28,628 bases of DNA from Candidatus Hadarchaeum sp. GTDB lineage: Archaea > Hadarchaeota > Hadarchaeia > Hadarchaeales > Hadarchaeaceae. How positions within the stretch are numbered: position 1 is the stretch's first letter; each line of letters opens with the position of its first letter. A program made the position numbers and the translations under genes. The DNA is taken from positions 1-28,628 of the forward strand of contig JAWCKT010000002.1 in NCBI GenBank assembly GCA_038851515.1, in the 5' to 3' direction. Under the pieces are notes generated by a model. The model was given only the letters and a program-made list of their open reading frames with translations. It was not told the DNA's origin and did not search any database. Below are positions 24,035 through 26,052 of the stretch, piece by piece.

Positions 24035-24237
24035 GATAAGTTGTTCTAGATGTTAAAAATAGCTGACTACTAAGCGCCCATCTCTTAAAAGACAAAATCA
24101 TGGCCGAGATCACCAACAAACACTGGCGATTCTGGTGACAATAATGAGTATAAATAGACGAAAAAGTTGTTGAAAAGTTTGTTAAACAAAAAGTCTAAAA
24201 TTTAAATTAAACAAAAACAAGTGAAAAGGGTGAGAAA

Positions 24238-26052
24238 ATAGCCAAGTTCTACATCACCACACCGATCTACTATATCAACTCGGTGCCTCATATCGGCCAT
24301 GCCTACACTACTGTGGTAGCTGACACCCTAGCCCGTTGGCACCGCCTGCGCGGGGATGACGTCTTCTTCCTGACGGGCTTAGATGAGAACTCCGCGAAGA
24401 CTCTAGAGGCAGCACGGGAGAAAGGATTCAAGGACATACAGTCATATGCCGACTCTATGGCGAACCTTTGGAAGGGAACCTGGAAGATGCTGGATATCAC
24501 CAACGATGATTTCATTCGGACCACTCAAGAAAGGCACCGTAAAAACGTCATCGATCTCTTCGAACGAATTAGATCCCGCGGAGACATTTACAAAGGGAGC
24601 TATGAGGGACTCTATTGTGAGGGTTGCGAGGCCTATTACACGGAGGCCGACCTTGTCGATGGAAAGTGCCCATTACATCTAACCAAACCAAAGTGGCTTC
24701 GAGAGGAGAACTACTTCTTCCGATTGTCCAAGTACGCCGATGTCCTACTGAAACACATCGAAGAAAATCCTGAGTTTATCCAGCCTGAGGCGCGTCGGAA
24801 TGAGGTCATCAACTTCATAAAACAGGGTTTGAAAGACGTGAGTGTCACGAGGCAAAACCAGCAGTGGGGAATAGATGTGCCCGGTGAACCCGGGCAGAAG
24901 ATTTGGGTTTGGTTTGATGCCCTAACCAACTATTTACTACCGAAGCGGTACTGGCCAGCTGATGTCCATGTCATCGCCAAAGACATCATCAGGTTCCACT
25001 GCGTCATTTGGCCGAGCATGCTGCTCTCCGCCGGACTTGAACTCCCTAAGAAGATCTTCGCCCATGGGTTTCTCACCGTCGAGGGACAGAAGATCAGCAA
25101 ATCCCTAGGCAACGTCATCGACCCCGCTTACTTGGTGGAAAAGTACTCAGCCGATGTCGTCAGATACTTCCTAATTCGGGAGATCTCCTTTGGACAGGAC
25201 GGGAACTTCTCCGAGGCCAGCCTTGAAGCCAGGCTGAACGACGAGTTGGCCGATATCCTCGGCAACTTTGTCCACCGCGTACTAACCTTTATCCGTGATC
25301 GCTACAACTCCAAATTACCTGACGGAAAAGTCGACGAAAAGTTTGAGGAGGAAGTCAAAAAACGCGTGGCCAAAATAGAACAGCTAATGCTGGATCTTAA
25401 AATTTCTCAGGCGCTCGAAGAGATCATGGCGATAGCTCGGCGGGGCAATGAGTATTTCCAAGCTTGTAAACCTTGGGAAACCCTGAAGAGAGATAAGGAA
25501 AAGGCTGCTGGTTGTATTCTCACCTGCGCCAACCTAGTGAAAATTTTGTGCGTGGCCCTAACTCCGTTCATGCCATCAACGGCAACTAAGCTTGCCCGCC
25601 AACTGGCCATCGAGGTAACGAGCTGGGATCAGGCAAAGTCTTTTGACCTCAGCCTTGGCCATCAGATTGGTGAGCCGATGGCGCTCTTTACGAAGGTAAA
25701 GTCAAACAACGCAGAAAAACACGAAAGCAAACTAATCTCCATTGATGAATTCGGCAAACTCGACATCAGGATTGGTCGCATCGTTGGCGCTGAAATTATC
25801 CCGAAATCAAAAAGATTGCTCAAGCTGGATGTGGACCTCGGAAAGGATAGGCGGACGATCGTTGCCGGCATAGCGGAAAAATACTCACCCGAATCCCTAG
25901 TGGGGAAAAACATCGCCGTGGTGGTAAACCTCGAGCCCGCAAAGTTGATGGGTGTAACCTCTGAGGGGATGCTTCTGGCCGCCGAGGATGAAAATGGTGT
26001 TTCCATTCTCGTGACCGACCGGCCAGTGCAACCGGGCTCGAAGGTGAGATAG
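24238..26052 (+). CDS. metG: Methionyl-tRNA synthetase, bacterial-type short-CP form with C-terminal tRNA-binding OB domain; apparent ATA start
   Basis: (M)[53 protein letters not shown], KISKS and C-terminal DIRIGRI/SEGMLL. There is no ATG/GTG/TTG in frame between TAA 24208-24210 and GTG 24283. Confidence 0.95.
   Translation: [604 protein letters not shown]

Follow-up and report, generated by a model that had tools for sequence, protein, structure and literature searches.

We describe a gene with a near-cognate start codon in Candidatus Hadarchaeum sp. The gene is metG, which encodes methionyl-tRNA synthetase (MetRS). It lies in the first 28,628 nucleotides of contig JAWCKT010000002.1 (assembly GCA_038851515.1), and this whole stretch is called the window below. 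As comparison with its relatives indicates, the ATA codon at positions 24238–24240 (plus strand) is the genuine initiation codon of this gene, the only MetRS gene found in the genome. We read the ATA as start-codon tuning because near-cognate codons have repeatedly taken the place of the metG start in Hadarchaeota, each of them persisting across several species, and because the gene of the initiation factor aIF1 has a conserved CUG start. We consider it somewhat probable that the tuning is selected, this judgement including the factual core that the codon is a real start.

An essential translation gene with at least four losses of a canonical start in one archaeal phylum, together with an aIF1 gene starting with CUG, is a concrete and testable case of start-codon-based control. 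It comes from the Archaea, and no other domain has an initiation machinery so close to the eukaryotic one. Even if only drift is at work, the case measures the relaxation of start-codon stringency in a deep-branching thermophile and corrects the annotation.

The start region of metG

The metG gene occupies positions 24238–26052 of the plus strand (604 codons and a stop codon) and encodes a MetRS of the short bacterial type (MetRS1-like) with a C-terminal tRNA-binding domain. Its translation contains the class I motifs PHIGH and KISKS and has the features by which the MetRS class is recognized. Homologues carry the Pfam domains PF09334, PF19303 and PF01588. The best solved relative is the Aquifex enzyme (PDB 2CSX, E=1e-135), with residues 2–486 aligned. 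The first Rossmann strand, FYITTPIYY, lies within the conserved MetRS core. The first-pass annotation of this DNA had placed the conserved N-terminus upstream of the first canonical in-frame codon, GTG at 24283–24285 (plus strand; Val16, one residue before HIGH), and both the sequence and the structure alignment confirm this. It was equally right that the frame is closed by an in-frame TAA at 24208–24210 (plus strand, seen in the sequence itself) with no ATG, GTG or TTG before the ATA: the nine intervening codons read ACA AAA ACA AGT GAA AAG GGT GAG AAA. The ATA is thus the tenth in-frame codon after the TAA, and the conserved N-terminus follows it. In three relatives (G003, G005 and G018) upstream in-frame stops are even nearer to the metG start.

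Archaeal mRNAs led by a Shine-Dalgarno (SD) sequence are positioned through pairing between the SD and the anti-SD. The SD of metG, GGGTGA at 24228–24233 (plus strand), matches the archaeal 16S 3' end and is separated from the ATA by the 4-nucleotide (nt) spacer GAAA. The modal arrangements at canonical starts of this genome are GGTGA+4 and GGAGG+7. Since GGTGA+4 is among the commonest spacings of the genome, the SD of metG stands at a modal position. Both motif and spacing are kept in the relatives with ATG or GTG. An A/T-rich element resembling a TATA box, AAATTTAAATT (24198–24208, plus strand), lies about 30 nt further upstream and is a putative element of the metG promoter. Its distance to the start codon is the same in 8/8 Hadarchaeum genomes and in the clade with ACG described below. 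The neighboring gene, of the DJ-1/PfpI family according to Pfam, is divergent (23507–24034, minus strand) and leaves a gap of 203 nt to metG; no upstream cistron is available for translational coupling. Every sequence-level feature that marks a near-cognate SD-dependent start was found at this codon.

If only ATG, GTG and TTG are allowed, the open reading frame (ORF) of metG is called at 24283–26052. A start at GTG 24283 would give a MetRS without its first 15 residues. It is what callers restricted to these three codons predict, and public calls of 589 amino acids exist for the lineage with ACG and for that of contig L152 (see below). We nevertheless hold such a start to be hardly credible. 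A start at Val16 would drop the first strand, because the alignment to the solved MetRS begins at residue 2, and this conserved strand is aligned in solved structures. There is no SD before the GTG. Relatives with an ATG start carry this GTG too, and others have GTT or GTC. The 15 codons upstream of Val16 evolve like coding sequence. In the clade with CTG the Val16 codon is GTC, so that the next canonical start would delete HIGH. The downstream start was rejected on the structure alignment, the codon comparison and the CTG clade.

Conservation of the ATA codon

The ATA is homologous to the ATG or GTG start codons of relatives. At this codon ATA is found in the genome of the window, in G001 (97% amino acid identity, isolate DRTY-6) and in G006 (88%, isolate KM4338-48). 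The relatives G002 (H. yellowstonense), G003, G005, G007 and other genera have ATG, and G004 and G024 have GTG. Contigs from two studies (runs X1 and X4) agree with the window at 24238–24240. A relative of about 91% identity from a third study (X10) differs at 24208, 24211, 24215, 24217, 24225, 24226 and 24237 and is unchanged at 24238–24240.

The first-pass annotation had allowed for a G at 24240 in the reads or for a private mutation. All sources from the three studies have A at this position and none has G; ATA is shared by three species-level genomes, and both a private mutation and an error are thereby excluded. The genome of the window is a metagenome-assembled genome (MAG) of 1.03 Mb, and the sequencing runs that best match the window are hot-spring metagenomes. 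The MAG is 72% complete at ~6x depth, which would favor an error in sequencing or assembly, or the decay of metG into a pseudogene. Against this stand the same A in six independent sources, the ratio of nonsynonymous to synonymous substitution rates (dN/dS) and the fact that this is the only MetRS gene. The dN/dS of metG is 0.045–0.05, equal to that of pairs bearing ATG, and there are no internal stops; synonymous divergence (dS) between this genome and G006 is 1.28. The gene is under strong purifying selection. Only one MetRS gene was found in this genome and in each of the 90–95% complete genomes G001, G006 and G008. The shared A and the purifying selection effectively refute an error or a pseudogene, and we give this explanation practically no weight.

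The genomes with ATA form a four-way polytomy with G007, which has ATG, in both protein and DNA trees. A single origin of ATA in this Hadarchaeum clade is not rejected (approximately unbiased test, p-AU 0.39). One NCBI protein, P0002 (G006, Candidatus Hadarchaeum sp. KM4338-48), is 604 amino acids long and begins with MAKFY, i.e., it is called from the ATA. This record has the same start as proposed here, but it is an annotation alone, with no comment or study attached. A pattern scan of metagenomes for further leaders of the ATA type returned only two contigs of the H. yellowstonense type, both with ATG.

Recurrence of near-cognate starts in Hadarchaeota

Several MetRS among the 120 closest protein clusters had been called 15 or 30 residues short or were oddly extended, and their DNA was then inspected. 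The mis-sized public calls from near-cognate lineages are P0049–P0051, P0063, P0075, P0082 and P0089, which are 15–30 residues short or artificially long. Gene callers truncate or mis-extend these MetRS genes, and miss aIF1, because archaeal starts are usually taken to be AUG, GUG or UUG. Reviews of archaeal initiation list these three codons only (PMC7531240), and ribosome profiling of Haloferax set near-cognate sites aside (PMC7261190).

The start codon of metG is ACG in the GTDB genome G043 and in four contigs from different assemblies (L149–L151 and L153), where it stands behind AAAGGAGGAAAGGTGGGAAC and the same TATA box. It is CTG, behind GGTGAT+3, in G008/GCA_020725895 (L253) and in GCA_964453945 (L252). 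A further ATA, behind GGAGG+7, occurs in the Logan contig SRR11308169 (L152), whose sister G038 has ATG. All near-cognate metG starts have an SD at the modal aligned spacing of 4. On a tree of 29 metG sequences the start codon changed state at least six times, and the near-cognate states fall into four separate groups. The ACG group is paraphyletic to G014 and G021, which bear ATG. By this comparison there are at least four origins of near-cognate metG starts in Hadarchaeota (ATA, ACG, CTG and again ATA). Outside Hadarchaeota all 63 readable loci have ATG, GTG or TTG, the sole exceptions in the set being the Hadarchaeum genomes with ATA. This set was drawn from the 80 best genome-contig matches (mostly Bacillota) and the first 30 relatives, and it counts those loci in which the N-terminal motif could be read on the given strand.

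Downstream of metG lies a gene of a PHP-domain protein (26053–26697), which starts with a TTG abutting the metG stop codon (26050–26055). The pairing of metG with this gene is also kept in the ACG and CTG clades.

Comparison with control genes

We compared metG with nine control genes in 26 genomes drawn evenly from the family. A gene was counted as lacking a canonical start if the stretch from the upstream stop to the conserved N-terminal block contained no ATG, GTG or TTG. This was the case for metG in 5/20 genomes, representing three events. No such case was found for a class I aminoacyl-tRNA synthetase (aaRS) of 896 amino acids (0/22), aRF1 (0/26), Kae1 (0/24), a GlmM-like protein (0/23), a SerRS-like class II aaRS (0/20), a protein of 451 amino acids (0/16) and an AspRS-like protein (0/23). 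The ThrRS-like gene gave one case in 24 genomes, with CTG in G042 (L348); TTG stands there in the sister genome G019 and in most of the family. The ProRS-like gene also gave one, with ACG behind GGTGGT+AAA in G044 (L397). Two suspected control cases were dropped: ATG is present in the GlmM-like gene of G006, and TTG or GTG in the ProRS-like genes of the genus.

Together the nine controls lack a canonical start in 2 of ~198 instances (2 events), versus 5/20 for metG. Fisher's test on genomes gives p=7e-5. With 2 events in 9 genes as the background rate, the Poisson probability of three or more events is P=0.0015. Both figures are indicative only, because the sample is small and the genomes, being related, do not count as independent. 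The comparison supports the suggestion that metG is subject to something gene-specific, its near-cognate gains being far above those of the nine controls.

aIF1 and other genes without a canonical start

The gene of aIF1, the start-codon fidelity factor (SUI1 family, PF01253), also has no ATG, GTG or TTG start in the genome of the window (G000). Its putative start is a CTG at G000:C40:6125-6127 on the minus strand (L403:1780-1782, in the ORF L403:1477-1785). The frame right after the rpl29 stop reads GCA CTG CAA GAG ATA TGT (ALQEICKVCGLPKELC), the CTG being 3 nt past that stop. The same CTG is present in 9/10 checked genomes of the family (this genome, G001, G002, G004, G006, G007, G008, G014 and G043); G018 has GTG, and G038, from outside the family, has ATG. 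The first canonical in-frame codon cannot be the start, because its position varies by genome from codon 5 to codon 89. Calling with ATG, GTG and TTG only yields no aIF1 ORF.

The aIF1 gene was one of four candidates from a scan of the genome of the window for a strong SD followed by an open frame with no canonical start. A dCTP-deaminase-like gene (G000:C38:2656-3273, minus strand; L118) has a candidate CTG start behind GAGGTGA+4; the codon is CTG in five Hadarchaeum species and TTG in G004. The gene of a zinc-ribbon/LiaF-like membrane protein (G000:C74:1613-1960, plus strand; L117) has a candidate CTG behind GGAGGTGA+4, with CTG in three species including G006 and G007 and ATG in G004. An AllG-like gene (oxamate carbamoyltransferase subunit; G000:C71:1212-2453, plus strand; L116) has a CTG behind AGGAGGTGA+4 and lacks any canonical start over 30 codons, and in G004 the frame continues into the upstream gene. 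No close orthologue of it aligned at the N-terminus, so its start stays a candidate.

A Csl4-like gene on contig C13 with a possible ATA start was dismissed, since an ATG 14 codons downstream is its likely start. Separately, a CoxM-like FAD-binding subunit (G000:C31:8153-9046, plus strand; L119) has a conserved N-terminus, FEYFEP, ahead of the first canonical start in its frame. A GTGATG in another frame stands there just before a G-run, and a frameshift, an assembly error or an ATC start is possible.

The initiator tRNA gene

Could these codons be read by an altered initiator tRNA? An initiator-type tRNA gene with the anticodon CAT and the GGG/CCC anticodon stem was found at G000:C29 ~10109-10299 on the minus strand (L141:1339-1530), which rules out an altered anticodon. 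Five blocks of it match the G004 gene, which has no interruption; four insertions (22, 34, 30 and 30 nt) separate the blocks, and the T-stem carries a compensatory change. ARAGORN alone missed the gene because it is interrupted. Its 5' acceptor strand is unpaired as read, and a further interruption near the 5' end is possible. The same opening 27 nt are also present in G001, G006 and G007. Given that the initiator tRNA keeps CAT and the GGG/CCC stem, near-cognate starts would have to be read by mismatch pairing.

A possible mechanism and its alternatives

In Archaea the complex of aIF2, GTP and initiator methionyl-tRNA (Met-tRNAi) tests the codon in the P site, and aIF1 destabilizes non-AUG complexes (PMC6237735; PMC4705826). 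In vitro, aIF1 rejects complexes with AUU (PMC4705826). In bacteria ATA initiates with reduced efficiency (PMC13068326).

Start-codon tuning of metG could work as follows. The SD GGGTGA, being at modal spacing, would anchor the 30S subunit and bring AUA into the P site. Met-tRNAi, with its CAU anticodon, could pair with two of the three bases of AUA, so that the protein would still begin with Met. Since aIF1 would normally reject AUA complexes, initiation would be weak and the yield inverse to aIF1 activity. MetRS synthesis would thereby be held low and tied to the start-codon stringency of the cell. Translation of aIF1 from CUG would probably define the stringency set point of the family through a loop like those of infC or eIF1, and MetRS, occasionally with other aaRS genes, would come under aIF1 control when an AUG mutates to a near-cognate codon. 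Directly seen are the codon, its conservation and recurrence, the enrichment over the controls and the CTG of aIF1; the initiation at ATA with Met, its weak efficiency, its dependence on aIF1 and any adaptive value we infer.

A more extended version is rather doubtful, though worth stating. It is a stringency circuit of Hadarchaeaceae, comparable to those of infC and eIF1, in which aIF1 would be autoregulated through its CUG. The gene of MetRS, and less markedly those of other aaRS, would have been drawn repeatedly into the aIF1-sensitive set by mutation of AUG to AUA, ACG or CUG, and the enzyme that charges the initiator would be set by initiation fidelity or by the status of the ternary complex.

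Several observations weigh against selected tuning. The start state is labile, with ATG in G007, G014 and G021 within or beside near-cognate clades, i.e., with gains and probable reversals. The replacements include all three transitions from ATG (GTG, ACG and ATA), which fits tolerated mutation without selection. The enrichment at metG rests on few events in related genomes, and both control events are in aaRS genes (ThrRS and ProRS). TTG and GTG starts dominate the ThrRS, ProRS and SerRS-like genes, the TTG of ThrRS being nearly family-wide. CTG also serves as the start of at least two other genes in the genus. The effect may thus extend to aaRS genes in general, or to the whole lineage, and need not be peculiar to MetRS. 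A genome-wide count based on SDs found near-cognate codons as a class not enriched (7/53 at spacing 4), the one exception being CTG where it follows an SD of 7 nt or more (3/18). This count has a high background of spurious frames, and a codon-usage score failed to separate genes from non-genes. The contigs of RNA run X9 cover only internal parts of metG, at 24335–24521 and from 24666 onward. Judged from the TATA-like box, the transcript could start at ~24226–24232. Such a start would lie within the SD or immediately ahead of it and would make the anchoring weaker; the profile of TATA-to-start distances was too weak to place the transcript start.

Lability, the set of transitions, the frequency with which aaRS genes of the family start at a weak TTG or GTG, the single near-cognate events in ThrRS and ProRS and the absence of a genome-wide excess all favor tolerated drift. 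Here the ATA would be a real start with no regulatory meaning, because MetRS is in excess or is buffered elsewhere and start strength is nearly neutral. However, the controls almost never lose a canonical start (the 2 of ~198 versus 5/20 given above), near-cognate states persist across species at saturated synonymous divergence (dS >1), and the SD and its spacing are strictly kept. We regard drift as a real possibility, although not a probable one.

The first-pass annotation had proposed that an ATA start on the enzyme charging the initiator tRNA could make metG sensitive to Met-tRNAi supply or initiation fidelity, by analogy with bacterial infC. The real ATA start and the metG-specific recurrence bear out part of this interpretation. 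Its bacterial frame of infC and IF3 cannot be carried over directly, since the host is an archaeon with aIF1, and we have therefore recast the analogy around aIF1. As for Met-tRNAi supply, a weak start would sense the ternary complex, and the initiator-charging enzyme would thereby be under homeostatic feedback. In line with this, metG is affected far more often than the controls, and in eukaryotes the use of near-cognate starts depends on eIF2 and on Met-tRNAi (PMC8287933). But by mass action less ternary complex would lower near-cognate initiation, which would make the feedback positive and not homeostatic. In addition, MetRS has no known part in start-codon discrimination, and many close relatives thrive with ATG. 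Such a loop appears unlikely to us.

Another route to the ATA would be termination and reinitiation. A mini-ORF of seven codons (GTG...TAG) lies at 24221–24241 of the plus strand in another frame, its TAG overlapping the ATA (ATAG), and ribosomes that had translated it might restart at the ATA. The mini-ORF and the ATAG overlap are present in all three ATA genomes, and such coupling is plausible at aIF1, where the CTG is close behind the rpl29 stop. At metG, however, the GTG of the mini-ORF has no SD and lies 13 nt past the TATA-like box, where it is probably untranscribed. The TAG arises automatically from ATA followed by G, and the ACG clade, the CTG clade and L152 have no such mini-ORF. We consider reinitiation very improbable.

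Relation to known systems

The role of MetRS is to charge tRNAMet; it is not known to discriminate between start codons. The closest bacterial parallel to start-codon tuning of metG is infC, the gene of IF3, which has an AUU start with translational autocontrol (Butler et al. 1987, through the account in PMC4705826). Both are initiation-related genes that keep a near-cognate codon, at metG in part of the lineage, downstream of a good SD, and the counterpart of the factor in our case, aIF1, also starts with a near-cognate codon (CUG). With this conserved CUG, aIF1 itself is the nearest true counterpart of infC that we found. However, the product of infC itself discriminates start codons and its AUU is almost universally conserved, whereas MetRS is not known to discriminate and the near-cognate metG start is recurrent but patchy (5/20). 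In addition, infC is bacterial, while the metG system is archaeal (aIF1, aIF2 and unformylated Met-tRNAi) and is known here from sequence alone. The membership of metG in the autoregulatory class of infC and eIF1 is doubtful, because MetRS is no known discriminator and its weak start is patchy. For aIF1 the feature of a self-discriminating product appears to hold, as judged by homology.

In eukaryotes eIF1 (through poor AUG context) and eIF5 (through weak-context upstream open reading frames) are autoregulated by start-codon stringency (Ivanov 2010; Loughran 2012, PMC3326321). The likeness is that homologous factors, eIF1 and aIF1, govern weak starts and have weak starts on their own mRNA; other weak-start mRNAs would form the stringency-dependent set. 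The difference is that here the codon itself is weak (CUG, AUA or ACG) and the mRNAs are SD-led, with no scanning; the regulation we infer from sequence.

A third comparison is with the rare starts of NCBI table 11 (ATA, ATC, ATT and CTG). Clade-specific start-codon changes have been described in bacteria, as have ATG-to-ATA mutants of Listeria rsbW (PMC13068326). Such starts share with metG a single-base change from ATG, a lower rate of initiation (predicted for metG), a phylogenetic pattern and occurrence in less than ~0.5% of genes. Our case differs in that an essential archaeal aaRS gene is affected, that several codons were gained independently and that ACG is outside table 11. What appears to be new is that metG is a hot spot for near-cognate starts in Hadarchaeota. 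Our literature search returned nothing specific on near-cognate starts of archaeal metG or aIF1.

The rps15 leader and other observations

The first-pass annotation had noticed that the metG leader is nearly identical to that of rps15 in the same window, with the same spacing. This is accurate: the 19 nt before the ATA (24219–24237) equal the 18 nt before the rps15 ATG (8540–8523, minus strand) with one extra A, a match counted as 17 of 18 nt, and the spacer GAAA between GGGTGA and the start is common to both. The near-identity extends over ~23 nt, through the first base of the second codon, and the pair is unique within 3 edits across the 1.03-Mb genome. The ribosome-binding region and ATG of rps15 lie at 8520–8540 on the minus strand, and the identity of S15 is backed by Pfam (archaeal S13/S15 N-terminal domain). 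One correction is needed: the 18-nt rps15 leader is the 3' end of the preceding ORF of the operon (8527–9090), whose TGA stop lies inside GGGTGA. The likeness could be a chance convergence on a good ribosome-binding site or the site of a shared regulator.

Elsewhere in the window, the ORF at 3972–4307 (minus strand) starts at a TTG.

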